A stretch of 64,000 bases of DNA from a virus: positions 250,367 to 314,366 of the IMG/VR virus record IMGVR_UViG_3300029288_006769. The stretch is one strand, 5' to 3'. Made by a program: the position numbers and the translations under genes. Below, piece by piece: positions 39,168 to 58,507 of the stretch; the stretch's first letter is position 1; every line of letters begins with the position of its first letter. Below the pieces are notes generated by a model. That model did no database searches. It was not told the origin of the DNA and saw only the letters and a program-made list of their open reading frames with translations.

Positions 39168-41885
39168 TTAGAAACGAACTCTTATCTGGTATTCTACATC
39201 GACCCAGTTCAATCCCATGATCGGGATATAGAAAGCAGTAACTTTGATGTAATCAGGTTGAACCGAATCTCTAACCGCAGTAACGCCCTTGTAATCAACA
39301 ATGATTTGTGCATCAACTGCGGACGCTAACATGGATCCTACTGCAGCTCCAACTTCTCCAGGAAGACTTGAAGTCATCTTTCTTCCGATATAAGGTTCTA
39401 CAACTCTACGAGTTTCTTGTTGGATGAAGTCTCTGATTGTGATAACCATAACTTCTCTTGTAAGAGCACTTGTCATATTCGTTGTCATTGCATGACGAAT
39501 AACCATTGTCGAACTTACCTTCATGATCACCGTCAAACCTCTAACAGCAACCAGGTCCATAGTTGTTTCATCCAGAGAGCGTACAAGCTGTTTGAAACCA
39601 AGCAATGTTTTGCGTGTCATCGGTGTTGCAACATCCCATATCGGACTTACATTCAAGCCACAAAGTGCTGCAGCTACAAATGTTCCATCAACAACATGTT
39701 CTGTTACGCTCCCGTCAGCTTCTACCATCTCAATAACAGCACCATCAGGATAGACGCCAATCATACGTTCTGTATTCAAAGCAAGAGCGTAGTTTCCTGC
39801 TTCCATAGGCTCTGTACCAACTGCAAAGCCAAAGAAACTGATTCTCTCTCTTCTGTTTCTCTTTGAAGACATACTTGCACAATGTGATGCTGTATAATTT
39901 ATAACAGCAGCCGATGCTGTAACAGGGAAAACTACAGCTGGATTAATACCATCTACATCCTGTTCAAGTCTCTTTATCACATCCATGTAAGACTGATCAG
40001 GTGCAAGATCGCTGCCCTCTGCTTTACGAACTTGACAAAGAATAAGAGCAGTTGCTCCATTCAAAAACATCAGATAAGCAGTAAGAACTAACGGATTCGA
40101 TGCGGTAAGATCACCGTACTCTGTCGTAATGTCTTTAAATTTCGTATAAAGAGCACAATCAAAATTGTCTTTTTCATAGTAATACGAAACATAATAAACA
40201 TCACCGACATTTGGCTCTTTACCCGATTTATCGAAAGCAATCAGATCTGTAATATCCCCTGCAGCAACATCCGTTGTGTTATTGACATTCAAATTCAAAC
40301 CAGGAATGCTTGTAACCATAAGAACGCTCGTAACAAATATTGCTTCAGCTGTAATATCTATCTGAAGAGTATCACCAGAAGCATAGGCGACATCAGATTC
40401 AAGCGTGAAAATTAATCCTGTTTGACTGTCAACGTAAGTTGAATTTGTTATTCCAAAACCAGCGGAACCTCCAACAACATTCGAACTTACAACAAAATGT
40501 GTATTTGAGGTAAAAGTAAGTGTTACAGTTTCATCAATGGTATAACCCTTAGAAACCGTAGGCCCTGTAAGATAATTTGCTCCAGTAAAACTTGGATTTG
40601 CAACAGACTCAAGCCCTGGAACTGCAATACCAAGTCTTCCATCTTCAAGTGAAGAAATAGTATATGTCCCTACTCCTACACCACCTGATGTTGCAACTTC
40701 TATGCTATAAGTATCATCTTCCATTCTTGAGCGCCAGTATGTAACTCTAACAGTGCTTCCTACAGCAGGAGGAGTTGCAAGATAAATAGTACCTAATTCT
40801 CCATTAACTCTTGTAACATCTCCTTCGACTGCTGGACCAACTAAAGGAGTTATTGTTACGGTAACATTTGTAGGATCATTTGTTACAATATCACGACCTG
40901 TTCCATCGACAATAGGTACGAATCTTACCGTACAAGATGTTTCGATCCCATGAAATTGGCTTGAAACATCTTCATTATAGATTCTGTCGTCAATCAGAGT
41001 TGCTTGGATTTGATTGTCATTGAAAAACTCACTACCTGATGTGTGAACAATTTCTGACAATTTGTAGCCTGTTCCCCATTCAATCTGTTCTCCAATAATA
41101 GCGTAATCGACGTTTTCGACAAAATCTGTTGTCTCGGGAGAAACACCAACTCTAATCATCCTTGTCAAACCAGTGAAAGGAAGATCATCAGCAGTGTTCA
41201 AATGCATATTGTAATAGTAAGTAACAGTAAGAGTTTGTCCAGGTGCCGGTGGCTCTGTCAGAGTAAACTCTCCATTTACACCATCAAGATGTGAAACTTC
41301 AACAATTGCATTATTGACTTTCACTGTAATGTTACTTATTGTCGTAGTCGCTTTTCCGGCATTTGTACCATCAACAATTGGTTTGTGATGAGTATAAAAA
41401 GTCACTGCTGATACTGTAATTTGATCTGAGATGTCTTCATCAACAACTCTTGTGTCAGTCTTTTTATAGAAGTAAGTGCAAGTTACTTCATCGGTACTTC
41501 TTGGTGCAAGTGCTAGATAAATTCTTCCATTAGCACCTTCAACTTTAGCAACAATTACTTTTGTACCATTGACTTTTACTTCGACATCATTTGTGTTGTT
41601 CGTTACACGGCCAAGTCCATCACCCACAACGATAGGATAATTAAGAACGGTAAAATCACGATTTGTGCCAGTAAAACCTGCTGACACATCTTCATTGACT
41701 TTTCTGTTGTCAAGATTTGGACTCGAACCACGAACAAGTTCATACCCTTCAACTCTTTTAACTTCTTCTGCTGTTCCAACAAGAGCAGGTATTCTCTGAT
41801 TAGCGAGCAAACCCCCGATAGCGGTGTCGAGATTTGTCGATGTGTATACAGCAGGCGGCGCATACCCTGTAAAAGGTCCAGCCAT
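39168..41885 (-). CDS. Contractile tail sheath protein (905 aa), enlarged by about 3 inserted 'NEDVSxQFxG...PIVDG' beta-sandwich domains
   Basis: Gene order sheath > tube. C-terminal region has the character of a conserved sheath fold. Internal repeats 'NEDVSAGFTG..PIVVGDG', 'DEDISDQITV..PIVDGTN', 'NEDVSSQFHG..PIVDGTG'. GGAG SD. Confidence 0.65.
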   Translation of the reverse strand: MAGPFTGYAPPAVYTSTNLDTAIGGLLANQRIPALVGTAEEVKRVEGYELVRGSSPNLDNRKVNEDVSAGFTGTNRDFTVLNYPIVVGDGLGRVTNNTNDVEVKVNGTKVIVAKVEGANGRIYLALAPRSTDEVTCTYFYKKTDTRVVDEDISDQITVSAVTFYTHHKPIVDGTNAGKATTTISNITVKVNNAIVEVSHLDGVNGEFTLTEPPAPGQTLTVTYYYNMHLNTADDLPFTGLTRMIRVGVSPETTDFVENVDYAIIGEQIEWGTGYKLSEIVHTSGSEFFNDNQIQATLIDDRIYNEDVSSQFHGIETSCTVRFVPIVDGTGRDIVTNDPTNVTVTITPLVGPAVEGDVTRVNGELGTIYLATPPAVGSTVRVTYWRSRMEDDTYSIEVATSGGVGVGTYTISSLEDGRLGIAVPGLESVANPSFTGANYLTGPTVSKGYTIDETVTLTFTSNTHFVVSSNVVGGSAGFGITNSTYVDSQTGLIFTLESDVAYASGDTLQIDITAEAIFVTSVLMVTSIPGLNLNVNNTTDVAAGDITDLIAFDKSGKEPNVGDVYYVSYYYEKDNFDCALYTKFKDITTEYGDLTASNPLVLTAYLMFLNGATALILCQVRKAEGSDLAPDQSYMDVIKRLEQDVDGINPAVVFPVTASAAVINYTASHCASMSSKRNRRERISFFGFAVGTEPMEAGNYALALNTERMIGVYPDGAVIEMVEADGSVTEHVVDGTFVAAALCGLNVSPIWDVATPMTRKTLLGFKQLVRSLDETTMDLVAVRGLTVIMKVSSTMVIRHAMTTNMTSALTREVMVITIRDFIQQETRRVVEPYIGRKMTSSLPGEVGAAVGSMLASAVDAQIIVDYKGVTAVRDSVQPDYIKVTAFYIPIMGLNWVDVEYQIRVRF

Positions 41886-45600: not shown

Positions 45601-46709
45601 ATTTGAGGGTATGTAGATTCTATTCGTTCATGACCCACAATATGTACAGCCTCTTGAGGATCTGTCGTTCCTACACCAATTCTTCCATTTGTTTTAAAAC
45701 GAATTCTCTCGATACCTGGAATCATTTCAGTTTCTGATGTACCATCTAAAAATCTCAAATCATTCGAATAATCTACAATGCTTGCCATGAAAATCGTACC
45801 AATACGATGATTTATATCACCAATATTTTGTCCATCGGCAAGTAAAAGATCTGTTCCTGGACCAAGTTCTACATCTTTAATCGTTGTTCCCATACAGTAA
45901 CTACTAAGAGAATTGATTAAAATTCTATTATCTTCAATCATTGATGTAGTAATATTACTTGAGGTATCACGGGTAATTGTGGCAATCTTTACAAACCTGT
46001 GATAGATACCATTAGCATCAGGTTCGTCTTCTGGTATTGCAGGAACAACTGGAGTAACACTTTCGACACCTTCCATCACACATATATCTTGCACCATTCT
46101 TACTCTATTTGCCGTAGAAAACCCTATGCCTGGGACAATCAAAGATGTGTCTTTATATTCAGGAGGTTCTGTTCCAATACCTACACCAGTAGCAGAAACT
46201 TCAGCAAAATAGAAATCAATATAAACTACATCAATTCTTGGATTTGTTACAGGGGCATGTAAAGCTGGTGCCGCTGGCCAGGTTTTTGTATAACGATCAT
46301 CAACAAGTGTTCCTGTACTATAACCTTGATTTTTGTATTCAAGATCATTTTTTAAAAACAAAATATAACCATCAACAATTAGAATACCTGCACCTTCAAC
46401 AGTTCCATCACCACCCCTAATCAAAAAGTTATTCACCGTGTCAGTGCTTTGAACAACTTGAAAACCATTATTTAAAGAGTAACACCTGCAATTTACATCA
46501 ACTGGATTTTCTTTTGAAGGGAAGTTTGCCGTAATTAACTGTCGAATATAAGAATCAGAAACTTCTTGTATTTCATCAAGCTCATTTGATGATAGAGGTA
46601 CACCTTTTTGAAAATGCATTCTATAACGTTTTTGAGCCCCTATAGCATTCGGAATTCCATCGGGATTATACATGCTGGGTTCATAATTGCCTGAATAAGC
46701 AACACTCAT
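42630..46709 (-). CDS. Tail fiber protein (1359 aa) with an array of '(R/N)(V/I/L)G(I/V)GTT.P...L(H/D)V.G' beta-repeats, an internal 68-aa tandem duplication and a distinct C-terminal domain (possible intramolecular chaperone)
   Basis: At least 7 copies of the GIGTTNP..LHV.G repeat. Duplicated segment 'QHQFWGM(P/S)NTSMYT..G..LQVAT.TNGNYSGIL.L.AATG'. GGGAG SD. Confidence 0.8.
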   Translation of the reverse strand: MSVAYSGNYEPSMYNPDGIPNAIGAQKRYRMHFQKGVPLSSNELDEIQEVSDSYIRQLITANFPSKENPVDVNCRCYSLNNGFQVVQSTDTVNNFLIRGGDGTVEGAGILIVDGYILFLKNDLEYKNQGYSTGTLVDDRYTKTWPAAPALHAPVTNPRIDVVYIDFYFAEVSATGVGIGTEPPEYKDTSLIVPGIGFSTANRVRMVQDICVMEGVESVTPVVPAIPEDEPDANGIYHRFVKIATITRDTSSNITTSMIEDNRILINSLSSYCMGTTIKDVELGPGTDLLLADGQNIGDINHRIGTIFMASIVDYSNDLRFLDGTSETEMIPGIERIRFKTNGRIGVGTTDPQEAVHIVGHERIESTYPQIDFYRTGTYLGYLSGNDDSGSEGIDLVAQGARKIRFHTNGSESACFTSTGRLGIGTTNPSQLLHVQGSCLINNDLFINGSSNFTDMGVAGKLTITQAANDNGLVVSQTGAVNDTAVVQITNAGIGPSLIVNSGRVGIGTTNPSATLHVSGNVLVDNNLTVNGTTTVINTEVTTADMLEINQNDNQVALSINQTEVGNSATVMTLHNAGTGYALLIDNGRVGIGTATPTSALDVIGTGAFSGNLSAGGDFNITGNLGVGTTTANNSKAHIIGPWSSSHSTVKIQSNEPSNITGVGFYDNVGARKGIVNWDPSYGMQISTDSGSDNIFLSSNRVGIGSSSPLQKLDVAGNINLTGDIYRPASDLAFIFDSTELFRMAYGGNFGIGTTDPQYKLHCEGQAYFNTITGAGIYLVGDNVMTDRVRTGGYVLVLEPDFPGAADSSASISISASTGSVNIIGGDSSIYVQGYEVDQKIDLNATQINFNTTGGPQHQFWGMPNTSMYTTSGYVLQVATTTNGNYSGILQLNAATGGSYVDVGVDGTFSMYGNVIHIDTTDGAQHQFWGMSNTSMYTSAGQILQVATATNGNYSGILKLDAATGESHINTGVDGTFTFYTHGVAIGSTPATFAALNIVPAGFNGQSGINFYGVESSITSGIDPSGTSNAGNLSLAGGRFPSISYGGYIRCDGNDYGSVGAGGNVYISAGNTSSGAIIHQGRTILSDNLDFNSSGTYFHATSYSEVLDINASFASDAGIIQICHGVDHGAPSSTNGAYVLVEGDGAGSDLTLSAGSGLTHGAVIIQSYQDLSLDANGHAIRFKNSNATVAEIASNGQIYSDAGTTISSPAADFAEWAAVTGDLANYCVGTIVQQSTDEDMKVEIGTGKIAYGIVTDRATFCGGFAVSDADPETVKHDFKNLSIEDLEKKYNAKRIAMTGHVLCKVVGTIKRGDRLTLCACTSPYPGVARAAKTIEETINSFAIARQSYDSTDVGLIEVRL
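43739..44146. repeat. Two tandem copies of a ~204-bp unit (~80% identical) inside the tail fiber gene
   Basis: 'ccccagaattgatgctgag' occurs at ~43924 and ~44128. The flanking ~180 bp align. The period is 204 bp, equal to 68 codons, so it is in-frame. Confidence 0.7.
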
Positions 46710-46800
46710 AAATTCTCCCTTTAAAAGAGACCTTTAAGAAATCAAAAACCAGACTTTAATAAAAATTTTAATAAAGAAGAAAATAAAAGGAGTAGAAAAC

Positions 46801-48030
46801 TTATTCTTGTTGGTATTTACGAGTCACACGTGGCCATGCACTTGGATAAACTTGATAAGCATCCATTGTAGGAACTATTTGCAAACCCTTTTGATGTCTA
46901 CTATTCATTTGACGTTCATCATATTGATTTGTTTCATAAGCTTGCTCTTTTAAATAATCAATACCATTCTTAAAACTATCTTCACCGTAACCATAATTGA
47001 TTCTACGAACTGTAGCAATCAAAGGGATATAAATTTCCCAATCTGTTTCGACAGTAAAACTAATTCCGCCCGTGAAATTATATTCTTCAGGAACTTCCAC
47101 TTCTAAATCTTCAGCCTCGCCTGACAAGGCAAACTCGCTAATTGCAATTCCTTCGTTTGCTAGGGCATCTTGATAATCTGCCCACAATGATGTAACTACA
47201 TAATCTATAACACGTTCTTGTTGATCAGCATCCTGAGCTACACCAAGAATATCGACATTAAGTATCCAGCGCCCACCAAAAACTTTAGCAGTTGTAGTAT
47301 TTTCTTCTTCTACAACAACAACTTGTTCATCTCCAACTTTTAGTCTATCACCAAAAGCAAGCACTACACCTGGGATAGCTGTATTATTAAGCCCATAATA
47401 TTCTGCTACAAAAGGGCCTTGTTGAGCAGATCGAACTTGATAATCAATAACAATTGGTTCGTGATCAGTTACTGGATTTGTGAAAAGAATCTCTCCTGTC
47501 TCATAATCTATAGCATAATCAATATCTTTTTTAAACTCGAATTGCCCATGTTCTGAAAAAACAATTTCTGAGCCTGGATTGACAGGTATGTTTTTTAGAA
47601 TAGCACCTTGGTGTGTTCTTATAACAACAAGATCTAGTTTTTCATTCGTGCAAGTCAAGTACGGGTCAACAGTAAAACTAAAAACATTTGTGTTGAGATC
47701 ATGTTCAGTAATTTTCACAATATAAAAACCTTGAGAAACTAATTTATCAAGGTTTTCTTGATCATCTCTTACCCATTCAATAGAATTACCAGGAACATCT
47801 TTTAGATTTGCTAATGAACAATAACCTCTATGAGTTCCAATAAAATTGTCAAGACCTAATTTTTGAGAAGAACCTGAAACAGATCTTACAAGAATAGCCG
47901 TTTTTGGACGCTCTTCTTGTGGGAATTTTGTATAGACTTTAACTTTTTCAAAAATAGGATGTCTAGCCAAAATATCTTGGAATATTGAAACAAATCTTTT
48001 TTTGAGCGAATTTGAAATTATATAAAACAT
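46801..48030 (-). CDS. Hypothetical protein (409 aa)
   Basis: Long ORF with operon orientation. No motif recognised. Confidence 0.55.
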   Translation of the reverse strand: MFYIISNSLKKRFVSIFQDILARHPIFEKVKVYTKFPQEERPKTAILVRSVSGSSQKLGLDNFIGTHRGYCSLANLKDVPGNSIEWVRDDQENLDKLVSQGFYIVKITEHDLNTNVFSFTVDPYLTCTNEKLDLVVIRTHQGAILKNIPVNPGSEIVFSEHGQFEFKKDIDYAIDYETGEILFTNPVTDHEPIVIDYQVRSAQQGPFVAEYYGLNNTAIPGVVLAFGDRLKVGDEQVVVVEEENTTTAKVFGGRWILNVDILGVAQDADQQERVIDYVVTSLWADYQDALANEGIAISEFALSGEAEDLEVEVPEEYNFTGGISFTVETDWEIYIPLIATVRRINYGYGEDSFKNGIDYLKEQAYETNQYDERQMNSRHQKGLQIVPTMDAYQVYPSAWPRVTRKYQQE

Positions 48031-48299
48031 TCATTAAACTCGCTTTTTGAAACTTTCATTTTCAAAAATTTCTTGCCTTGTAGTTGAACAAGTACTTTGT
48101 CCCCTTCATCTTTTACTACAACAAATTTATCTTTTTCACCAGAAAGAATCGCACCTGGCTGAACAGTTTTAAATTGTGGCTTAGGCTTAGTATTAAGAGA
48201 TTCTACATATTTCTTATGTTCTTCATCATTCTTAATTTGACGAGCAAGATGGATTTTTAAGTTTTGAAACTCTTTATTGCAAACTGGACAGAGAGTCAT
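48018..48299 (-). CDS. Small protein with an N-terminal C2H2-like zinc finger (93 aa)
   Basis: 'CPVCNKEFQNLKIHLARQIKNDEEH'. Confidence 0.5.
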   Translation of the reverse strand: MTLCPVCNKEFQNLKIHLARQIKNDEEHKKYVESLNTKPKPQFKTVQPGAILSGEKDKFVVVKDEGDKVLVQLQGKKFLKMKVSKSEFNECFI

Positions 48300-48311
48300 T
48301 GCTTTCTCTCC

Positions 48312-48674
48312 TTATTGTTCGTTATTATCTAACACAAATCTATTAATTGCAAAAACACCTACATCTTCACCTGTATCTTCTTGAACACAAAGATACCCTG
48401 GCATTGATGCATCAGACACTATATAACGACGCCCTTTAAAAAGGGGACCAAAATTATCTACACAAATAACAATATCACCCCCGTTAATGAGTTTTGCTTC
48501 TTTTTCTTGAGCAGCTTTTTTCTCGACAGTATCAACAATAGAATCAAGTTCTTCATCACTTAATATAGATGCAACTTGTTTTGCAATTCTATCAAGATCT
48601 TCAGACATTGCTGGATTAATCTGCTTTGTCTGAGAAGCTACTTTTGTCAAATTACCTACCATTGTCTGTTTCAT
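48312..48674 (-). CDS. Hypothetical protein (120 aa) immediately downstream of the actin-like gene
   Basis: Tight 12-nt spacing. No motif recognised. Confidence 0.5.
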   Translation of the reverse strand: MKQTMVGNLTKVASQTKQINPAMSEDLDRIAKQVASILSDEELDSIVDTVEKKAAQEKEAKLINGGDIVICVDNFGPLFKGRRYIVSDASMPGYLCVQEDTGEDVGVFAINRFVLDNNEQ

Positions 48675-48686
48675 ATTCTCTCTCCT

Positions 48687-49763
48687 TTATGCATAAAACT
48701 GTAAAGCATTCAATAAGCACCCTTTTGCAACTGCATTGAGTGGATCTGATGCCTTTTTTACTTGTTTAATTGAGAATGGTAATTTTTTCGTCTTTATTTC
48801 TTGCTCAAAAAGTTTATCAAAATTAACAGCTTTAGATGTTCCACCACTAACGACAACAGATATAGATTCTGGAAAATTAGGAATATCTGTCATAGAAGCA
48901 AATTTCTTTTCGATAGCATCACAAGTATAATTAATCAAATTTTCATAATAAATCTTTATTGCAGTCTCTTCTCTATTCTTTGAGTTCAATAAATCAACAC
49001 CAGCTTCTTTAAGCATAGTAATTCTTGAACTCTTAACTCCAACAGCTTGAGCAGCATTTTGATCAATCCAATCCCCTGAACGTGCAAGACAAAATTGATA
49101 TTTTTTATCAGAGACACCGTATAAAGAAAGAGCAAGATTGATTGAACCCGCACCAAATGATAAAGCTAACCCTGTAAATTGTTCTTCCTCAAGTTCTGAC
49201 CACACGATAGCAAATGCTTCATTGAGTGGCTCAGCATTATATCCAAATGATTTCAAAAATGACATAAGTACATTGCCATGATAAACATTATTGAAATCAC
49301 TGTCAATAGGATCAGCAGGAATCGAGAAATAAAGCTTCTCATTTTCTTCTATAGGGTCTCCCACAAGATTCTTCAAAATAATCTTTATAATTGACAAAGC
49401 TTCCGTTTCTCTAGAAGAAAGTACACCTTTAGAAAAGGGTCGACGTGATTCTTTGCTAAAGAAATTTGCTACATGCAAAGCTTCATCACCAAGAACATAG
49501 AGATTTCGTTTGTCAGAACTTTCAGCAAAACTGGCACCAAGTTTTGTAAGCATATTTTTTGAAATCGCATTGTTTTCTAGATCTAGAAAAGCATTTCTTT
49601 GACTCTTGAATATAATACCATTATCTGAGTAAAAAGAACTAACAGCAAAACCTGTACCACAATCTAGGCCTACACCTTTTTTTCTAGCAATTTTTGTGTC
49701 TTCCATTATTCGTCTTTTTCTTCTTTCTGGCTCTGAACCTTCTTTTTCAAGTTGGACATCCAT
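48687..49763 (-). CDS. Actin-like ATPase (ASKHA superfamily; MreB/ParM/FtsA-like, 358 aa)
   Basis: Phosphate-1 'VGLDCGTGFAVSS'. MreB-like 'VLGDEALHV...RPFSKGVLSS' (compare 'vGeeA...RPlkdGVIaD'). Phosphate-2 'LSFGAGSINLAL'. Adenosine motif 'VVVSGGTSKAVNFDKLFEQEI'. Confidence 0.75.
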   Translation of the reverse strand: MDVQLEKEGSEPERRKRRIMEDTKIARKKGVGLDCGTGFAVSSFYSDNGIIFKSQRNAFLDLENNAISKNMLTKLGASFAESSDKRNLYVLGDEALHVANFFSKESRRPFSKGVLSSRETEALSIIKIILKNLVGDPIEENEKLYFSIPADPIDSDFNNVYHGNVLMSFLKSFGYNAEPLNEAFAIVWSELEEEQFTGLALSFGAGSINLALSLYGVSDKKYQFCLARSGDWIDQNAAQAVGVKSSRITMLKEAGVDLLNSKNREETAIKIYYENLINYTCDAIEKKFASMTDIPNFPESISVVVSGGTSKAVNFDKLFEQEIKTKKLPFSIKQVKKASDPLNAVAKGCLLNALQFYA

Positions 49764-49765
49764 AA

Positions 49766-49984
49766 TTAATCTCCTTTAATTTTATATTGCTGTTGTCTAT
49801 TGAAATCGTCTTTTACATCCACAGGGTTGCCTCCGGACCATTGTTTGCCACGATTTTTTAGACCAGCAGGTATTTCTCCTTTATCGAAAAAACCTTGTTC
49901 TAATAAAGCTCGTGATACATCACCTTTTTGTGATAATGAACGTGATGCAGCAAGAACATCTCTTATGATATTTTCAGTATTCAT
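49766..49984 (-). CDS. Small protein (72 aa) immediately upstream of the actin-like gene
   Basis: ATGA-type coupling with the neighbours. No motif recognised. Confidence 0.45.
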   Translation of the reverse strand: MNTENIIRDVLAASRSLSQKGDVSRALLEQGFFDKGEIPAGLKNRGKQWSGGNPVDVKDDFNRQQQYKIKGD

Positions 49985-50634
49985 TTGTTTTCTCTTTGTT
50001 GTTTAATCCGCTTCATCTTTTCAAGCGAATTTGTAAGATCATTTTTTTGAACTTCTACATTACCTGTTTTACTCATATTCGCTGTCATTCCCACTTCTTC
50101 GTCTTTGAATTCGACAAAGATATTATCTGAACTATTAATATCTATCCTTTTTTCAGATACTTGTGGTACAATTAGTTGTTCTACTTTAATATTGTCTTTT
50201 ATTTCGGCAACCATTTCCTTCGCAAGTTCTCTAGCAATATCTTTTACGATAGTGCTGTTTTTTATCATTTCTTCAGCCATTGCTTTAGCCATATTTTTTG
50301 CAATTTCTAACACATCTGACTCTAGCACTTTTTCATTTCCTGTTTTATTATTTTGAGCTGATATAGCTCTCTTAAGCATGGCTCTATCATACACGATCTC
50401 GACCCAATTTCGATTTATTGCATTTTGCAAATCTTTTGAACGATTAACTTCATATTCATTAAGAATTACTTCTTTACCACATTCAACGACTTTACCAATA
50501 TCATTAAGTCGAACAGCAGTAAGTATTTTCCCTTTAATTATCATGATGATCTCGGGTTCCCGTTTTATAACTGGTTTCCATATATGTCTCATTAAATGTT
50601 GCTGAAAGCTCATGAACCATCTTTTCAAACACAT
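49981..50634 (-). CDS. Hypothetical coiled-coil protein (217 aa)
   Basis: Operon context. K/E-rich helical C-terminus. Confidence 0.5.
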   Translation of the reverse strand: MCLKRWFMSFQQHLMRHIWKPVIKREPEIIMIIKGKILTAVRLNDIGKVVECGKEVILNEYEVNRSKDLQNAINRNWVEIVYDRAMLKRAISAQNNKTGNEKVLESDVLEIAKNMAKAMAEEMIKNSTIVKDIARELAKEMVAEIKDNIKVEQLIVPQVSEKRIDINSSDNIFVEFKDEEVGMTANMSKTGNVEVQKNDLTNSLEKMKRIKQQRENK

Positions 50635-50646
50635 GTTCTAGCACTT

Positions 50647-51009
50647 TTAGATTAGTTTGCTTATCGAATCTTGAATCTTTTTCCCAGCTTGTTCTTGTGT
50701 TCTCTCCATAGCTTTCTCTATTCCTGTTGTAGAGAACTGTTGAGCTGTAATTTCTTCATTCAACAATTCTACAGGAATATTTTCAAGACCTTTGAGAACT
50801 TGCTTATTTGCAATATCTTCAGTTTTTAAATTTTCTATTTTAGGTTCTACAACAAAATTGATAGTATTATTTTTAATACTATAAGACACATCAGCTTCTT
50901 GCCCTCGTTTCTTTAACTCTGATCTTATATTGTCTGCGCCCTTGATTGCAATAGAGCGTATTTTAAAATCAAATTTCTTTTTTAAGAGTTTTTTGCTCGG
51001 GCTTAACAT
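50647..51009 (-). CDS. Hypothetical protein (120 aa)
   Basis: Operon context. Confidence 0.5.
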   Translation of the reverse strand: MLSPSKKLLKKKFDFKIRSIAIKGADNIRSELKKRGQEADVSYSIKNNTINFVVEPKIENLKTEDIANKQVLKGLENIPVELLNEEITAQQFSTTGIEKAMERTQEQAGKKIQDSISKLI

Positions 51010-51016
51010 TTACTTC

Positions 51017-54000
51017 TTATTTTATAAATTTTTTAGAAAACTGCCTTGTTTCAAGCAATTTATTTACAATAGATAGATTAGATTTTGCTATATCAAAATT
51101 TGGATTAACAGATAATGCGCTCTTAAACATAAAAATAGCTTTTTGAAAACTATTTTTATTTGCAAGATCTATACCTTTGTCATTGTAAGCAACTTCTAAT
51201 AAACCCCAAGACTTTGTTTCTTCTGTATTTATTCTCAAGCATTTTTCTAAAATACTAATAGCTTCATCGTTTTTTTTGAGAACATTACAACAATGACTAA
51301 AATCGGCCATAGTTTTTAAATCATCAGTCTTATAAACAATCTTTCTAAAAGCAAAATATGCATCTTCAATACGATTTTGTTTTGCATAGCAGATACCAAG
51401 ATGTTTAACAGCATACTCTGTTTCTTTTATCTTTATAGATTCTAAAAAATATTTTTCAGCTTGTTCATAATCTTCTATGAGATTATAGGTTGTTCCCAAA
51501 TGCGCAAGAACATCTTCATTCTCAGGTTCAAGTTCTAATAATCTGCGCCAAGTCACTAGAGCTTCATCGGGATTATTCAAAACTAAATATTGGGTCCCAA
51601 GTTCAAAAAGAGCTTTCGTGTCATTAAATGTTTCAGCCTTTTTCTTGCTAAGTTTTAAATATGTTTCGTTTTTTGAAGAATTAAGCTTTGAATAATGGTG
51701 AATTGGAATAGCAGACATTTCGATATCAATTCCGAGTTCTTCAATAGATTTTTCTACCAATTCATGTATTTCACCCCTAAACTTTATATTTTTATTCGTA
51801 GGAAATAAACGAATTTTATCTGATCTACACCAACCTATGTAACCTTTTTCTTCTTGCTCATATTCTCCGGTATTTGTATTGATTCCTTCAACATTTTTTG
51901 AATTCACATAATTTCTCGTAATGAATCCATAAGCTTTAGATGATGCTTGTAAATTTTTTCTCAATTCATCAATATCTTTCTCACTAATCATTTCGTCAGC
52001 ATCCAAAACTAATGTCCAGGGTTGTGTTGCTTTTTCAAGTGAAAAATTTCGAGCAGCTGAAAAATCATCAATCCATGCAAAATGATAAATCTTAGCTCCG
52101 TATTGTTTTGCAATTTTTATTGTGTTGTCTGTAGATCCTGTATCAACTATTATAATCTCATTTGCTACATTTTTTATAGACTCTAAACACCTTCCCAGGC
52201 AATCTTGTTCATTTTTGACAATCATACAAACAGAAAGTTGCTCTTTTCCCTGGCACAAATAGTTTGAATAGAGCCTATGTAGAACGGTCTCTAGTTTGTC
52301 AATGCTTTTATACCATAGGAATTCATTAGCAGTTTTTAAACCTTCTTCTATTAAACGAGAATAAATAGTCTCATTTAAAAAAAGCAATTTTAAAGAACTA
52401 CAAATAGCCCCAGAATTTTTAGGTGGAACAATTAATGCGTTTTGACCATGTACAGCATAATCATTCACTCCTCCGCAATCTGTAGTTATGACAGGGGTTC
52501 CACTTGCCATTGCTTCTAATGGAGGAAGACTGAACCCTTCGACTTCAAATGGTGCATTTACAACTACATCACAAGAAGCGTATACATTTGCAATTTCAAT
52601 CTGCGTCATATTCGACATATTATAAAATTCGTAAGGCTCATCTTTAGAACATTTTTCAGAAGCTAAACGAACTATTGCACATTTAGAAATCTTCAAATAA
52701 TTTGTTGCACCTTCTAATGCGATTTTTACTCCCTTAAACACTAAATTATAATTGCCCACAATAAGAATTCTTGGGAGTTTATTTCTTTCATGTTTTCTCA
52801 AAGAAAAAACATACTGATCAATTCCATTAGGTATGTAATGTGATTCTGTTTCAAATTTTTTATCAATAATAGATTTCAAATATTTAGAAATAACAATTTT
52901 CTCTTTTATCTTCAAATAATTGTTATTCACAGCATCAACTATTGTTGCGTCCAAATCTTTATCATATATCAAAGCTTCATAACCTTGACAAAAATGAATC
53001 TTTATTTTTGCTTTAATTTTTTGTAATATGTCTAATGTAGAAAAATAAGTACCAATTGCTATATCTACTTCTGGAATTTCTGTATATTCTTTAAAACAAG
53101 AAACTGATACGTCTAAATCAAACCAGGGCTTTGATGTATTAGAATAACACCAGATAGATACATCATATCCTCTTGATTTTAAACGATTTGCATACTCAAA
53201 TACGACTTTGACTCCGCCACTGGGTTGATTTGAAGCTAAAATGTATATGATGGAAAATTTATCTTTTTTCTCATTTATTTTCTGTATTCTTGAAGAATCA
53301 TACCATTTTTGAAGATACAGTTTTTTGCTTTGTTCTAAAGTTTCTTCGAAAAAACCTTCTTTTTCTTGAAAAGATTTACTACCAAAATGGTAAATAAAAA
53401 CGCCTTTAGAACATATTAATTTATAACCATTCTCTATGAAACGATTACAAAGATCATCATCTTCAAAATTGAAAATAAATCTATCATCAAAAAAACCTAC
53501 CTGATTTAAGAGCTCTCTTTTTGTTACAAAACAAAATCCGATAAGTTTATTTGCTTCTACTACATCATCTCCAAAATTTGCATATTGTTTTTGAGAAAAC
53601 AGACGAATTTCGTTATCATTTACCTCAGCTTTAAAATTATAATTTTGTCCAACTTTTTGAATTTCTGATGATGTATAATTAGTGACTGGCCCAATAATAC
53701 CTGCATTATTTTCTTCAAGCAAATTTATTAATCTTAACAACCAATTTGATGTAACAACAGTATCGCTGTTCAAAAAACAGACATATTTAGAATTTGATTT
53801 TCTAAGAGCTTGATTATTTGCATAACCGAACCCAAAATTTTTAGAATTGTATATTATTTCAATATTTTTTAAAGACATTAAATACATTTTTGTAGCATTA
53901 TCGGAGCAATTATCTACTATGATAAGTCTATAATTTGCTGTATTTCTTATTATGCTTTCAACACATTTTTGCAAGTAAGGAAGAGCATTATGTGTAATTA

Positions 54001-54838
54001 AGACAATATCACAATCATAAGTAACTTGAGCTTCATTATACTCAAGACTTAAAATTTTTGATCTTAGATAATCTAAAGCTTTTGCAGCTATTACACCATT
54101 TTGTTGTATAAGTCTTTGTCCCCATTTTTTCAAAAGCGTAGGATACGAATATTTGACGAGAACATCTCTTTTCCCTTTATATGATTGATTCGAGCGATGA
54201 TAAACATAAACATCATCAGCTATTGCAAGTTTATAACCTCTTTGTCTTATTTTCAAGACATAATCGTCTTCACTACCATAATGTGGAAAAACTCTTGTAT
54301 CTAATAAACCTATGACTTTTATAATGTTATATGAAATAAAAAAACAAAATCCATTTACGAAAGCTGTTTCTGGGTATCTTCTTTCTGATAACGATGTCAC
54401 CCAATTGCCATAAGTATCTATTTCTGTATCATTGACACAAGATTTACCTACAGATTGTGTTGTTGCACAATTTGACAAAACACCCATACAACCAATCTGT
54501 TTATGACTTGCCCAATAAGTCGTAATCTTTTCTAACCAATTTTGTGTAACAATTTGAGTATCAGAATTTAACAAACATACATATTCGAAATTCTTGCTTT
54601 CTAAAATCCCTTGATTACAACTCTCTGTGAATCCCTTTGAAACAGGATTTTTAATGTATTTTTGTACTATTTTGCTATCAAAAAGTAACTGACAAAAATT
54701 AGAAGTTTCAAGATCAGAACCATCGTTAATTAAGACTATTTGAAAATCTTTGGTGTTAGACTTTTCGAGAATTGTTTTGACACATTTTTCAAGCAATTCC
54801 CACTGATTGTGTACTGGTATGATGATTGAGACAGCCAT
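51017..54838 (-). CDS. Multidomain glycosyltransferase (1273 aa): GT2 - GT2 - GT4 - GT2 followed by C-terminal TPR repeats
   Basis: GT2 #1 'SIIIPVHN...IVLINDGSD...GSEDDYVLKIRQRGYKL'. GT2 #2 'DIVLITHN...LIIVDNCSDNA...NFEDDDLCNRFIENGYKL'. GT4 'EGFSLPPLEAMASGTPVITTDCGG'. GT2 #3 'LSVCMIVKNEQDCLGRCLESI...EIIIVDTGSTDNT...DDFSAARN...LVLDADE'. The tail region matches the TPR 34-mer pattern. Confidence 0.85.
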   Translation of the reverse strand: MAVSIIIPVHNQWELLEKCVKTILEKSNTKDFQIVLINDGSDLETSNFCQLLFDSKIVQKYIKNPVSKGFTESCNQGILESKNFEYVCLLNSDTQIVTQNWLEKITTYWASHKQIGCMGVLSNCATTQSVGKSCVNDTEIDTYGNWVTSLSERRYPETAFVNGFCFFISYNIIKVIGLLDTRVFPHYGSEDDYVLKIRQRGYKLAIADDVYVYHRSNQSYKGKRDVLVKYSYPTLLKKWGQRLIQQNGVIAAKALDYLRSKILSLEYNEAQVTYDCDIVLITHNALPYLQKCVESIIRNTANYRLIIVDNCSDNATKMYLMSLKNIEIIYNSKNFGFGYANNQALRKSNSKYVCFLNSDTVVTSNWLLRLINLLEENNAGIIGPVTNYTSSEIQKVGQNYNFKAEVNDNEIRLFSQKQYANFGDDVVEANKLIGFCFVTKRELLNQVGFFDDRFIFNFEDDDLCNRFIENGYKLICSKGVFIYHFGSKSFQEKEGFFEETLEQSKKLYLQKWYDSSRIQKINEKKDKFSIIYILASNQPSGGVKVVFEYANRLKSRGYDVSIWCYSNTSKPWFDLDVSVSCFKEYTEIPEVDIAIGTYFSTLDILQKIKAKIKIHFCQGYEALIYDKDLDATIVDAVNNNYLKIKEKIVISKYLKSIIDKKFETESHYIPNGIDQYVFSLRKHERNKLPRILIVGNYNLVFKGVKIALEGATNYLKISKCAIVRLASEKCSKDEPYEFYNMSNMTQIEIANVYASCDVVVNAPFEVEGFSLPPLEAMASGTPVITTDCGGVNDYAVHGQNALIVPPKNSGAICSSLKLLFLNETIYSRLIEEGLKTANEFLWYKSIDKLETVLHRLYSNYLCQGKEQLSVCMIVKNEQDCLGRCLESIKNVANEIIIVDTGSTDNTIKIAKQYGAKIYHFAWIDDFSAARNFSLEKATQPWTLVLDADEMISEKDIDELRKNLQASSKAYGFITRNYVNSKNVEGINTNTGEYEQEEKGYIGWCRSDKIRLFPTNKNIKFRGEIHELVEKSIEELGIDIEMSAIPIHHYSKLNSSKNETYLKLSKKKAETFNDTKALFELGTQYLVLNNPDEALVTWRRLLELEPENEDVLAHLGTTYNLIEDYEQAEKYFLESIKIKETEYAVKHLGICYAKQNRIEDAYFAFRKIVYKTDDLKTMADFSHCCNVLKKNDEAISILEKCLRINTEETKSWGLLEVAYNDKGIDLANKNSFQKAIFMFKSALSVNPNFDIAKSNLSIVNKLLETRQFSKKFIK

Positions 54839-54845
54839 GATGTGT

Positions 54846-55907
54846 TTAAAAAAGCCTTTCTATATTTTCAATTGTTTTTTCCCAAGTGTAATTTGAAATC
54901 ACCTCTTCTATATTTCTTTGAAACATAGTTGCAAACTCTGTATTATTTAAAAGCTCTTTAGATTTTCTTAAAATATCTTGTTTATTTTTCTTTTCAGCTA
55001 TAAGACAAGTTTTTTTATCAAAAAAAACATCATCAAAAGCTCCATCACAAATGACAGAAGGGCATCCACATAATGTCGATTCTATAGGGGTTAAATTAAG
55101 ACCCTCGGAAATCGATGGCATAATAAAAATAGAACACTTATTAAAAATTTCTCTTATTGTATCTTTATTTGCATCTACATATTTGGCTATAAGTTTTTCA
55201 GGATGTTTTGCGTTTTCAAACCCCGAACTTGTACCAAAAACTATTGTTCCATCAATTAAACCTTGGTTGCACAAATCATTACAGATTTCAACACCAAGTG
55301 CATATTGTTTATCTGGAGCATAATGATACAGTAATGAAGCATATCTTTGTCTTTTAATCGCCTTATCTCTGAAAAAATAATTTTGCGAATCCGATCCAAA
55401 ACCTACACAAGCACATTTTCCTCCTTCTGCTTCTATAGCTTTTTTGATTTTTAAAGTGCTTGACATGACAGTTAATTTCGGGTTGAATACATTTTTTCTT
55501 TCTCTTTCGAAACACATACCATAACTTAGCATATAAATCAAAACTTTTTTGACTTGAGGAAGATTTGTAAGATACTCTGTGTAAGGATTGTCTGAATATG
55601 TGATCACTACATCAGATGCAGGAAATGTTTGGTCAGGTAATCCCACTGTGTATGGAAGAGGCAACACTTTCGAGTAGTCTAAATTAGGATTTAAAGTTTG
55701 AATCCTAAGTTGCACTTGATATTTTTTTTTTAATCCCCTTGACAATGCCATTGACAACTGTTTCATATGTTGAATCCCTCCACTTGTTTCCACATATTTA
55801 GGGATTTCAACGACAAACAGATTGCTAAATTTTCTAGCTAAAGTTGTCTGCCGCATTATGCCACCGCTCTCATTATTGAACACAGGAAGTTCTACTACAA
55901 TCGTCAT
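54846..55907 (-). CDS. GT4-family (GT-B, retaining-type) glycosyltransferase (353 aa)
   Basis: 'MPSISEGLNLTPIESTLCGCPSVICD' (E-x7-E motif). Confidence 0.7.
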   Translation of the reverse strand: MTIVVELPVFNNESGGIMRQTTLARKFSNLFVVEIPKYVETSGGIQHMKQLSMALSRGLKKKYQVQLRIQTLNPNLDYSKVLPLPYTVGLPDQTFPASDVVITYSDNPYTEYLTNLPQVKKVLIYMLSYGMCFERERKNVFNPKLTVMSSTLKIKKAIEAEGGKCACVGFGSDSQNYFFRDKAIKRQRYASLLYHYAPDKQYALGVEICNDLCNQGLIDGTIVFGTSSGFENAKHPEKLIAKYVDANKDTIREIFNKCSIFIMPSISEGLNLTPIESTLCGCPSVICDGAFDDVFFDKKTCLIAEKKNKQDILRKSKELLNNTEFATMFQRNIEEVISNYTWEKTIENIERLF

Positions 55908-56467
55908 TCTTTTTTCCTACAAGTTATTGCAACATTTTCAAAATCTAAAAAATCTTTTTTTAAATTATTTTCTAAACAAGTTGCATCTATATCCTTGTCG
56001 GTTATTTCAATCCAATTCCAGATTTTTCCTATCATGACATTTTCAAAATACTCCATATCCTTTGCATAATCATGTGCCAAAATATAATCGCCTGGTTTTA
56101 AAAATTTTGAAAAAATGCTAAATTCTTTAATTTTGTTTCCACCATCACAAAAAACAACACTTGTTCCTTCATTCTTTATCAAGTTTTGGATTACATCAAT
56201 ACTCTCAAAAACATCAGCAATTCTATGATCAATATTTAAACGTACAAACAGTTTATTGTTTTCAGTTAGTTTTTTAATGTCAAATGTAACAAACTGACAA
56301 TCATAAGCAATTGCATACATTTGAAACAATATAGAAAGGCCTCCATAATATGTTCCAATTTCTATGATAGTCTTTGGCTTTACAGCAAGTAAAAATTCAT
56401 TTAGAACTTTTGGAATATTTTCATTCTGTGCAAGATTAAAGCCTAAAAATTCGAAACTCACATTCAT
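55904..56467 (-). CDS. SAM-dependent O-methyltransferase (TylF/MycF/CmcI-like class I MTase, 187 aa)
   Basis: 'TIIEIGTYYGGLSILF' (motif I) ... 'VVFCDGGNKIKEF'. Confidence 0.6.
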   Translation of the reverse strand: MNVSFEFLGFNLAQNENIPKVLNEFLLAVKPKTIIEIGTYYGGLSILFQMYAIAYDCQFVTFDIKKLTENNKLFVRLNIDHRIADVFESIDVIQNLIKNEGTSVVFCDGGNKIKEFSIFSKFLKPGDYILAHDYAKDMEYFENVMIGKIWNWIEITDKDIDATCLENNLKKDFLDFENVAITCRKKE

Positions 56468-56510
56468 AGCTACTCCTTGTCAAAGCAATCAAAGCAATGT
56501 TCGAATTAAA

Positions 56511-57068
56511 TTAATCTTTTCTCAAAACCCAACAATTTCCTCTAACAATATATTTTTTATTTAATTTTTCACAAAATTCATCAATCGCTTGTTTTACAGG
56601 AGGGTGTGAAAAATCATGCCCTGCCATAGTTCCACCTACACAAATCTTAGGCCACCAACAATTTAGATCTCTTCTAACGGCATCCAAACTATGATCGGCA
56701 TCAATAAAAACAAAATCTATTGTATTGTCTAAGAAATAACTTGCTCCTAAATGACTGAGTGATTTTATAACAATTAGATCTTTCCAAATTGGTTCTAGAT
56801 TTTTTCGAAATAAATCTAATTGTGGATATGTAGTGATTTCATTACCATTATGAGCATTCCCTATGAAAGCATCAATGCTTATTACAGTTAGATTTTTTTG
56901 CGAATTTATAGCTTCAACAGCTAAAAATGCTATACTTTGGCCTATCCATGAACCTACTTCTATAAGAATGCCATTTTGTCTGCTCTGTTTTATTGCATCT
57001 TCATAAACATCTTGGAAATTAAACATAGTTTGTTGAGGAGAACAAATTGTTTCATAAAAATGTTTCAT
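56511..57068 (-). CDS. Class I SAM-dependent methyltransferase (sugar O-MTase-like, 185 aa)
   Basis: 'ILIEVGSWIGQSIAFLA' ... 'FVFIDADHSLDAVRRDL'. Confidence 0.7.
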   Translation of the reverse strand: MKHFYETICSPQQTMFNFQDVYEDAIKQSRQNGILIEVGSWIGQSIAFLAVEAINSQKNLTVISIDAFIGNAHNGNEITTYPQLDLFRKNLEPIWKDLIVIKSLSHLGASYFLDNTIDFVFIDADHSLDAVRRDLNCWWPKICVGGTMAGHDFSHPPVKQAIDEFCEKLNKKYIVRGNCWVLRKD

Positions 57069-57075
57069 ACTTGTT

Positions 57076-57852
57076 TCACACCTTGTAAGTTGTTTTTATT
57101 GTTGTTGGACTACAATTAGGTCCTCGAGTGTCTTTACCAGCAAAAACATCAAATACAGAACCAATGTCTACTGCTACACCACCTTGATTTTTCCAAAACA
57201 GACCATATATTTTTCCGACAAAACCTGAGCCATATAATAACAACTTTCCCTTTAGATCTCCCAAATTTTTTATAATTTGTTGTATTTCAAGAAATCTATC
57301 AGGATAATGTTTACTTCTATATCTTTTTTCTTCAAACATCATTTCCGGAGGTACTGGAATAAATTGTACATTAGTTATATTGAATCTCTTTGAAAATTGT
57401 CGAGCTAAATCTCTACAACTTATAATGTATAAATCTTGTCTATTTAAAAGCAATTTATCATAACAAGATTCTCTTGATTCCCAATTTCTCAAAAATTCAT
57501 AATGAAAATCTATCGACCCAAAATCTGTAGTTTTAATATTGCAATAAATTTTTAGAATATTTAAACTTTCGGTCCAGCAACTTCCAAGACTAAGATGATA
57601 TTCTGTAGGAATTCCTAACAAATCGGCATTGTTTATAGTCTCAATTAAATTTTTTCTTATTTCTTCTATAGATTCTTTTTTTAGAATCTCATTTAATTGT
57701 CTACTAAAAATATGTTCAACAATATTTTTTTCATTGTTCTTTAAAAGTATTGCTTCACCATCACCATATCTTAATGCTAGAAATGATCTATTTTCATTTA
57801 AGCTAGTTATTATTTTTAAAAATACTTGATTGAAATCATTATTGATATTCAT
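57076..57852 (-). CDS. Possible GT-D (DUF1792-like) glycosyltransferase (258 aa)
   Basis: 'LALRYGDGE' near the N-terminus resembles the R-x-GDGE motif I recall from DUF1792/GT-D enzymes. Embedded among GT and MTase genes. Low certainty. Confidence 0.4.
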   Translation of the reverse strand: MNINNDFNQVFLKIITSLNENRSFLALRYGDGEAILLKNNEKNIVEHIFSRQLNEILKKESIEEIRKNLIETINNADLLGIPTEYHLSLGSCWTESLNILKIYCNIKTTDFGSIDFHYEFLRNWESRESCYDKLLLNRQDLYIISCRDLARQFSKRFNITNVQFIPVPPEMMFEEKRYRSKHYPDRFLEIQQIIKNLGDLKGKLLLYGSGFVGKIYGLFWKNQGGVAVDIGSVFDVFAGKDTRGPNCSPTTIKTTYKV

Positions 57853-58507
57853 ATCTCGACAATTCTTGAAAATTCTGACAATTTACATTAATAAGACAAT
57901 ATGTTTCTCTATATACATCTTTAAATTGAATTAATTCTTTTGCTCCCAATTTTTCACTATAAACAATAGTATCTACAGGTGAACAAATCGGAACTATTTC
58001 ATTAGAACTTGAATCATTTATTTTATATAAGCTCCCTATCTTTGCTTCAAATTTTAATTCTTCAGTAATTTTTTTTAACATTTCCGTTGTTACATTTGTA
58101 GGATGTCCTATCCAATCTGTCCATGTCAACTTAAACCCTAAAGAAGCAAGGTATTTAATTTTATCGAAACATGGGACTTTAATAAAGATGAATTCTGTAG
58201 CAGCTTTAACAGATTTTTCTAATACGTTTTTAACTTGTGCTTCATTTTTTAAATGTTCAAGAAAATGAAGCATTGTTATAAATCTACATTTAGGAATTTC
58301 ACAACTTACATCAGTAATATCAGCAAAAACTACATTATAACCTTTTTCTCTTGCTCTTTCAAGTTCGCTTTTCCTATTGTCAATACCTAAAAATGTTTCT
58401 CCACCAAATCTAGATTTTGCCCATCCTATAGACCCACCCACACCACAACCCAAATCGACACAATCTAGCATTATATTTCCTTTAGCAAAAATTAAACAAA
58501 TTTTCAA
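57839..58507 (-). CDS. Class I SAM-dependent methyltransferase (222 aa)
   Basis: 'LDCVDLGCGVGGSIGWA' (motif I) followed by acidic motif II/III positions. Confidence 0.65.
   Translation of the reverse strand: MKICLIFAKGNIMLDCVDLGCGVGGSIGWAKSRFGGETFLGIDNRKSELERAREKGYNVVFADITDVSCEIPKCRFITMLHFLEHLKNEAQVKNVLEKSVKAATEFIFIKVPCFDKIKYLASLGFKLTWTDWIGHPTNVTTEMLKKITEELKFEAKIGSLYKINDSSSNEIVPICSPVDTIVYSEKLGAKELIQFKDVYRETYCLINVNCQNFQELSRYEYQ

Follow-up and report, generated by a model that had tools for sequence, protein, structure and literature searches.

Among actin-fold proteins, the closest described relatives of the protein studied here are volactin of the archaeon Haloferax volcanii, which forms dynamic filaments in vivo (PMC10869688), and MamK, a cytomotive filament that positions large cargo. 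Phages too encode actins, as exemplified by AlpC (PMC4446434), and those described so far belong to prophage partition-like systems. The only well-studied phage cytoskeleton is the tubulin PhuZ of nucleus-forming jumbo phages, and it is the only one named in reviews of jumbo phages from 2020 to 2026. Here we analyze a stretch of 64,000 nt of viral DNA (positions 250,367 to 314,366 of IMG/VR record IMGVR_UViG_3300029288_006769), which we refer to as the window. It carries a gene for a 358-amino acid (aa) actin homolog of the Volactin family, situated in a contractile-tail module. Our preferred reading, to which we give a probability of about 45%, is that the gene encodes a late-expressed, filament-forming actin that organizes virion or tail assembly, or late intracellular architecture. 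All genes of the window lie on one strand; the actin gene, the two small open reading frames (ORFs) that flank it and the gene island next to its cassette are as follows.

48687 to 49763, minus strand: Volactin-family actin homolog, 358 aa (Pfam, AlphaFold2 model, Foldseek and family profile).
49766 to 49984, minus strand: small basic conserved protein, 72 aa, pI 9.2, directly upstream of the actin gene.
48312 to 48674, minus strand: acidic conserved protein, 120 aa, pI 4.5, directly downstream of the actin gene.
51017 to 58507: island of glycosyltransferase and methyltransferase genes, directly upstream of the cassette.

A preliminary description of this DNA had reported the same three ORFs, an adjacent glycan island and a late gene block around them, and had called the central product an actin-like ATPase. 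All four points agree with what we found, the late block being represented by genes for a sheath, a baseplate wedge, a tape-measure-like protein and a fiber around the actin gene.

The 358-aa product comes from a real actin-fold gene of the MreB/MamK type. The Pfam model PF25216 (Volactin) matches it at E 2.9e-74 and 250.9 bits, against a cutoff of 35, and does so over its full length (protein residues 31-353 on profile positions 3-321 of 321), while the MreB_Mbl model of Pfam gives a weak match (E 0.042). Database searches returned 832 homologs of the protein. A single-sequence search of PDB was marginal (MamK, E 0.43) and the family profile was needed to bring out MamK (E 3.8e-10) and MreB (E 0.008) among PDB sequences. 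PHROGs and NCBIfam gave nothing useful for the actin or its neighbors, apart from a sub-threshold MamK match in NCBIfam; with 34.4 bits for model NF040964, against a cutoff of 400, the protein is not a member of the MamK subfamily.

An AlphaFold2 (AF2) model of the protein, made with 72 homologs as input, reached a predicted local distance difference test score (pLDDT) of 90.4 and a predicted template modeling score (pTM) of 0.87. In this model, residues 1-23 are disordered (pLDDT <50), within a first stretch of 30 residues that is basic (pI 9.8); an actin fold follows, with four subdomains and two RNase-H-like domains. The best match in a Foldseek search of PDB was the MamK filament 5ljv (E 2.3e-15, target-normalized TM 0.75), followed by MreB, the BeeR filament and eukaryotic actin or F-actin, with 723 fold matches at E ≤1e-3 in all. 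A fold search of BFVD found no close viral structure.

The preliminary description had offered a second possibility, a sugar or metabolite kinase of the ROK/BadF type within the ASKHA superfamily, serving the neighboring glycosyltransferase island. The proximity of that island speaks for it, but we found no ROK or BadF match in Pfam at E ≤1, and the top 50 PDB folds include no sugar kinase, the leading ones being actins, MreB, MamK and FtsA. Furthermore, the island is missing beside the actin gene of the huge phage LR745208 and is replaced by other genes in another viral locus (L003), with the actin gene still there in both cases. We therefore reject a sugar kinase. Since it is absent from the one and different in the other, the island is a lineage-specific insertion in an otherwise conserved minor-tail/actin/terminator module; it may have a role in the modification of virion or host glycans. 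It includes a 1273-aa protein with GT2, GT2, GT4 and GT2 domains plus TPR domains.

To describe the nucleotide pocket, we compared 166 sequences, 86 viral and 80 cellular. The phosphate-1 motif (D34-x-G36-T37), E182 of the catalytic region and the adenosine motif (G307-G308-T-S) are present in the window actin and invariant in the whole set. The residues conserved in 166 of 166 sequences are D34, G36, T37, E182, S202, G204, G206, N209, D231, D234, G307 and G308. The phosphate-2 motif reads S202-F-G-A-G-S, where G204-x-G206 is kept and the canonical Asp is replaced by Ser. The same Ser is found in all 86 viral and all 80 cellular members, none of which thus has the Asp of the canonical DxGxG[TG] pattern. 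The preliminary description had credited the protein with all the ASKHA motifs; this holds for phosphate-1 and adenosine, but not for phosphate-2.

S202 aligns with the phosphate-2 Asp of MreB and of Haloferax volactin and, in a separate profile alignment, with that of MamK. The two functional positions that follow it are Met207 in the family (Ser in the window phage) and Asn209, where the corresponding trio of MreB is D, T and E. Mutants of ParM D170 reportedly show that the phosphate-2 Asp is needed for hydrolysis, which is said to be abolished by its mutation. The invariant Ser202 in place of this Asp suggests that ATP hydrolysis may be slowed or altered and that any filaments would therefore be relatively stable. 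Judging from the alignments, the pocket is clearly under purifying selection, yet is a distinct variant. Elsewhere in the protein, codon 261 (48981-48983) specifies Ser in the window actin and Pro in the NCBI copy and in 161 of the 166 relatives; at this conserved position, Ser261 represents a strain variant or else an error in the sequence.

The position of the gene is the second part of the main finding. The module around it, and the remaining members of the cassette, consist of the following features.

59518 to 62259, minus strand: 913-aa protein with Fn3_assoc and CHB_HEX_C domains (Pfam), upstream boundary of the module.
50647 to 51009, minus strand: basic protein, 120 aa, upstream end of the cassette in the low-GC phage clade (homologs in L003, L004 and L092/L093).
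49981 to 50634, minus strand: 217-aa protein, beta-rich in its N-terminal domain, helical and of low complexity in the middle and basic at the C-terminus.
48018 to 48299, minus strand: 93-aa protein with an N-terminal C2H2-like zinc-finger motif (weak; Pfam E 0.004, phrog_9929 E 0.003).
46801 to 48030, minus strand: acidic protein, 409 aa, probable tail terminator or neck protein (homology to Tunturi_5 gp324).
39168 to 41885, minus strand: tail sheath, downstream end of the module (phrog_2839, E 2.5e-29).
In the window: tail-fiber-like protein, 1359 aa (PHROGs).
In the window: tape-measure-like protein, 1233 aa.
12697 to 14187: 496-aa protein with weak baseplate-wedge and weak sheath-initiator matches.
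9503 to 12694: baseplate wedge protein.

A scan of IMG/VR showed that relatives of the actin are encoded on at least 577 viral contigs with lengths of up to 406 kb and a GC content of 29-66%; the neighborhood counts given here refer to the best 80 of these. Nearer relatives, at 52-89% identity, are carried by contigs measuring 130-466 kb. Of the 80 loci, 63 have a co-oriented gene for a homolog of the 409-aa protein just downstream of the actin gene, as does LR745208; no other downstream partner of the actin is as well conserved in the viral family as a whole. On the other side, a homolog of a 462-aa protein of LR745208 lies upstream of the actin gene in 53 of the 80; this protein corresponds to the C-terminal part of the 913-aa protein of the window. 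Three contigs of related huge phages (L003, L004 and L005) share with the window the order 120-aa, 217-aa, 72-aa, actin, 120-aa, 409-aa, giant fiber, small ORFs and sheath. In the GenBank phage collection, the gene occurs in only two uncultured huge phages, LR745208 (485 kb) and LR756511 (595 kb). The copy in LR756511.1 (L089, 9995-11014) is the most divergent, at 33% identity, and adjoins a 334-aa ORF in a non-tail context, so huge phages do not all have the actin in the same position.

The functional reading of the module owes much to Tunturi_5, a cultured jumbo phage with an acidobacterial host and a 309-kb genome (PMC11924767). Its gp322, gp324, gp326 and gp329 are homologous to the 913-aa, 409-aa, sheath and 205-aa proteins of the window, and their order is identical; the shared string (PP885688.1, 259473-277919; locus L170) comprises minor tail, tail terminator, sheath and tube-like proteins. 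The 913-aa protein matches gp322, a 'minor tail protein', with a BLAST E of 2e-29 (1e-36 for the 462-aa protein of LR745208), and the window sheath matches gp326 at E 7e-58. The profile of the 409-aa family matches gp324, labeled 'tail terminator' by its depositor, at 107.7 bits, and 3 of 51 members of this family weakly match phrog_11431 ('virion structural protein'). The family has no match in Pfam or PDB sequences and no source annotation, and these two are its only functional leads.

A search of the GenBank phage collection found no copy of the actin in Tunturi_5. The actin gene, along with the 217-aa-type gene, is therefore an addition between the minor-tail and terminator genes; a large lineage has conserved it, yet tails of this kind can be built without it. 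Tunturi_5, sharing the module without the actin, is a possible experimental comparator.

The cassette itself is tightly packed. The gaps are 2 nt between the 72-aa gene and the actin gene and 12 nt between the actin gene and the acidic 120-aa gene, all on the minus strand, and each of the three ORFs is preceded by an AAGGAG-type Shine-Dalgarno site. Of the upstream neighbors, the 217-aa protein is the most widely conserved; BLAST detects homologs at 10 loci within the low-GC clade. LR745208-type phages encode, immediately before the actin, a protein to which the N-terminal domain of the 217-aa protein shows remote homology (hhalign probability 94.6%, E 6.8e-8). Where a gene of this type can be detected upstream, 20 nt or less separate its end from the start of the actin gene in 19 of 24 loci. 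Comparisons by hhalign and BLAST found no link between the 72-aa or basic 120-aa proteins and the neighbors in LR745208-type phages; the basic 120-aa protein also had no family match in Pfam or PHROGs. The 93-aa gene is a lineage-specific insertion between the acidic 120-aa and 409-aa genes that is absent from L003, L004 and L005.

Homologs of the 72-aa protein occupy the equivalent position in L003, L004, L005, L090, L092 and L093, with conserved motifs KGD-[VI]-S and GNP-[VI]-D; the protein matched no family in Pfam, PHROGs or NCBIfam, and among these no recognizable DNA-binding family. The acidic 120-aa protein has 35 homologs, and all those whose contigs could be matched lie on actin-bearing contigs. 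It is predicted to form three N-terminal helices and a C-terminal SH3/KOW-like barrel (AF2 pLDDT 75.5), with weak Foldseek matches to the KOW domains of Spt5/NusG and to SH3 domains (E ~6e-3), and its C-terminal tail, NRFVLDNNEQ, is almost invariant. In this model it looks like a protein-binding adaptor rather than a ribbon-helix-helix DNA binder, and it is a candidate clade-specific partner of the actin.

The preferred reading, that of a filament-forming actin in virion assembly, starts from observations: an actin fold, a strictly conserved pocket, co-oriented tight packing with virion genes and a position that has been kept. From these we infer late expression, ATP binding and polymerization. 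The actin would be produced late along with the structural proteins, as suggested by the gaps of 2-13 nt, the Shine-Dalgarno sites, the single strand and the surrounding tail genes. It would bind ATP and polymerize into filaments, as has been seen in experiments on its relatives volactin and MamK. The filaments could provide an intracellular scaffold or track for the assembly and placement of tails and necks, or of whole virions, in a manner that would make them a counterpart of the PhuZ tubulin spindle. The lineage-specific 72-aa basic and 120-aa acidic SH3-like proteins may be regulators or adaptors of these filaments. The preliminary description had proposed an actin cytoskeleton that positions DNA or virions; the placing of virions remains the most plausible functional class, while the DNA-segregation half found no support, as detailed below.

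Four points weigh against this reading. The tight, sometimes overlapping link to the terminator-like gene fits an assembly chaperone or virion component equally well. With Ser202 in place of Asp, the protein might hydrolyze ATP poorly or have another mode of action. No function can be recognized in the partner proteins. Lastly, the 64 kb inspected belong to a genome of at least 424 kb.

The first of these points leads to a different view, in which the protein is a non-filamentous ASKHA ATPase, either a morphogenetic chaperone or a tail/neck component, that acts on the adjacent tail-terminator-like protein. Closteroviruses offer a precedent, their Hsp70 homolog becoming part of the virion tail, and viral Hsp70 homologs are among the BFVD fold matches of the phage actin. 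The gene lies between homologs of a minor tail protein and a tail terminator; in 12 of the 63 loci with a 409-aa gene, the actin stop and the 409-aa start are within 15 nt or overlap (within 100 nt in 21 of 63), suggesting coupled translation, and the canonical phosphate-2 Asp is missing. On the other hand, more than 700 nt of other genes separate the two in 19 of the 63 loci, and Tunturi_5 has a contractile tail of homologous proteins without this gene. The 358-aa chain ends with the actin fold and has no Hsp70 substrate-binding domain, and Hsp70-type folds rank far below MamK, MreB and actin in PDB. Its closest sequence relatives, moreover, form filaments. A chaperone or tail component is a possibility, but in our view an unlikely one.

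The layout of the cassette, an actin-like ATPase between small conserved proteins, had led the preliminary description to propose a par/alp segregation system and an element replicating as a phage-plasmid. Under this hypothesis, the locus would be a type II ParMRC/Alp-like partition system of a plasmid prophage, and its centromere-binding adaptor would be the 72-aa or 120-aa protein. It has precedents in AlpC/AlpA of prophage CGP3 (PMC4446434, PMC5539076) and in actin-like proteins of Bacillus plasmid-prophages (PMC8026635), and the 72-aa protein is suitably basic. However, three defining features of partition that can be tested here fail, and we put this explanation low for that reason. No centromere-like iterons or tandem arrays were found at 46000-52000 or in any intergenic DNA of the window; with three search settings, the only hits were chance pairs and protein-domain repeats inside ORFs. 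The 2-nt gap upstream of the actin gene leaves no room for a parC site or a promoter. The actin has no ParM/StbA-type Pfam match at E ≤1, and the acidic 120-aa protein, which occupies the position of ParR, was rejected as a ribbon-helix-helix protein given its pI and its helices plus SH3/KOW-like barrel.

In addition, the gene sits within a virion late operon, and most of the 80 viral contigs show it tied to the tail-terminator gene. The ORFs scanned in the window, outside which more than 80% of the genome lies, include no integrase, ParB or replication gene. We conclude that the phage actin is not a plasmid-partition motor, the partition hypothesis as a whole being very improbable.

A scan of 185,579 species genomes, using a pattern that favors this subfamily and did not recover the haloarchaeal members, found relatives almost solely in Planctomycetota and Omnitrophota, at 38-46% identity to the window actin. 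These carry the Ser202/Met207/Asn209 pocket variant as well, and one has been named 'disk-shape morphogenesis protein volactin' by NCBI. Their genes are chromosomal with ordinary neighbors, among which BLAST and hhalign detected no phage cassette proteins. A HMMER pass over 1.84 billion representatives gave 310 clusters at E ≤1e-30, many of them of ~700 aa with two actin stretches. Two Omnitrophota genomes have tandem volactin-like paralogs of ~330 and ~480 aa (L063, 6034-8647; L080, 5986-8433).

Neighbor-joining trees place all 80 cellular sequences in a single clade whose sister is a viral clade of 71 members; the low-GC viral clade of the window and LR756511 branch deeper. The trees are rough, with short internal branches and an E. 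coli MreB sequence as the outgroup, and we read no direction of transfer from them; we take the separation of the clades as their only reliable outcome.

These relatives raise the possibility of a host-takeover protein that, late in infection, replaces or co-polymerizes with a volactin-like actin of Planctomycetota, Omnitrophota or related hosts. The phage copy would then reshape, enlarge or stabilize the cell for very large virions or for lysis. In favor of this are the near-restriction of the detected cellular relatives to these two phyla, the placement of their single clade next to the viral clades, and a viral GC range that matches the span of Planctomycetes-Verrucomicrobia-Chlamydiae (PVC) genomes, including a Planctomycetota metagenome-assembled genome (MAG) at 32% GC. 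A tail protein of the window with DUF1573/ASH-type Ig domains is also consistent with it. Against it, the scan pattern is biased toward this subfamily, and no host link was found in the form of CRISPR spacer, tRNA or prophage evidence. With only ~40-46% identity between the viral and the cellular proteins, and with the two falling into different clades, this is not a recent capture from a host; the conserved placement in the tail module is also left unexplained. We consider host takeover doubtful.

A more specific proposal is that of an ancient phage-lineage actin built into virion morphogenesis itself, which would template, measure or transport tails or necks and be produced in step with the terminator, with the Ser making hydrolysis slow. 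We think this rather improbable. The phage actin is as divergent from the Planctomycetota and Omnitrophota proteins as the viral clades are from one another, and the rough tree allows the PVC cellular clade to be nested among viral clades, such that the bacterial gene could be of viral origin.

Several other features of the window deserve mention. Positions 14831-19471 encode a 1546-aa protein of the tail module with at least five Ig-like domains of the ASH/HYDIN/Cep192 type plus DUF1573, an unusual adhesin-like architecture. Also among the tail genes are a 196-aa ORF of three repeats spaced ~190 nt apart, with a weak match to silk RP1-2 (25334-25924), and a 418-aa protein with an N-terminus resembling phage endonuclease I (25918-27174). 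Direct repeats of ~234-300 nt at 1863-3238, within the first 5 kb, probably belong to a large repeat-domain ORF that extends past the start of the window. A scan for sigma-70 promoters and terminators was at background (88 sites vs. 82 expected) and uninformative.

A 98-kb contig from a MAG labeled Candidatus Nanoarchaeia (GCA_028717785.1) shares 99.74% identity with the window, and identical copies of the acidic 120-aa and 409-aa proteins are encoded on a 424-kb contig. Given the tail genes, the bacterial-type Shine-Dalgarno sites and a gene order shared with a jumbo phage of bacteria, the archaeal label is most likely a binning artefact and the contig probably a mis-binned huge phage.

Full-text literature searches on volactin, on actin of jumbo or huge phages and on phage-encoded actin turned up no account of the family in a phage. 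Both phage actins (AlpC/AlpA of CGP3) and the Volactin family are already known, and the finding is hence not categorically new. What appears to be new is a Volactin-family actin, with an Asp-to-Ser change in its pocket, fixed in the tail module of widespread large uncultivated phages. It differs from the phage actins known so far both in family and in being held in a tail/neck position in most of the best 80 of at least 577 contigs, and its closest cellular relatives are found in Planctomycetota and Omnitrophota, phyla with unusual cell biology and few known phages. If the protein does form filaments, actin-based phage assembly becomes directly testable with a protein that is small, soluble-looking and easily expressed. 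The invariant Asp-to-Ser variant would in that case be a natural experiment on the actin ATPase mechanism, and the family a marker for tracing the phage lineage and its hosts.

Set beside known systems, the phage actin has counterparts in other viral ASKHA or actin-fold proteins, namely closterovirus Hsp70h (a virion-tail assembly factor), the viractins of giant viruses and gp506 of Bacillus phage G. The likeness is generic, with TM ≤0.58 and 11-15% identity, and the subfamilies are different. ParMRC, Alp7ARC and AlpAC of CGP3 are likewise mobile-element systems in which an actin-fold ATPase is accompanied by small neighboring genes. Compared with these, the phage locus is without a centromere repeat, a recognizable ribbon-helix-helix or other DNA-binding adaptor or a promoter of its own, and its actin belongs to another family and to a late virion operon instead of an early or maintenance locus.

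The volactin-like proteins of Planctomycetota and Omnitrophota share the pocket variant with the phage actin, but form a separate monophyletic clade and lack the cassette genes. They are possibly related to 'saltatorellin'; filament formation in E. coli is documented for a MamK-like actin from Saltatorellota (10.1101/817700). MamK (5ljv, 5jyg) is the closest to the phage actin among solved structures, in fold as in sequence, at ~18% identity. It works with an acidic adaptor, MamJ. It differs in having the canonical phosphate-2 sequence DIGAGT, and the phage locus has no magnetosome genes.

Volactin (VolA, HVO_2015) shares PF25216 with the phage actin, which matches this model over its full length with 251 bits, and the motifs of the two are very similar (FTG-L-x-x-[DS]-FGAG and VVV-[ST]-GGTS). 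Volactin, a chromosomally encoded archaeal protein, takes part in the transition from rod to disk shape, whereas the phage actin is viral and lies in a tail module. The phosphate-2 sequence of volactin is DFGAGT (Supplementary Fig. 8b, PMC10869688), vs. SFGAG[MS] in the phage and bacterial members, and its gene has CetZ5 and HVO_2016-2020 as neighbors, unlike the phage locus (PMC10869688 supplement). The functional analogy that we propose is with PhuZ, which is also a phage-encoded polymer that organizes infection in very large phages. PhuZ has a tubulin fold, uses GTP and occurs in Chimalliviridae together with chimallin, whereas the present protein has an actin fold, belongs to an unrelated lineage and is encoded in the tail module.

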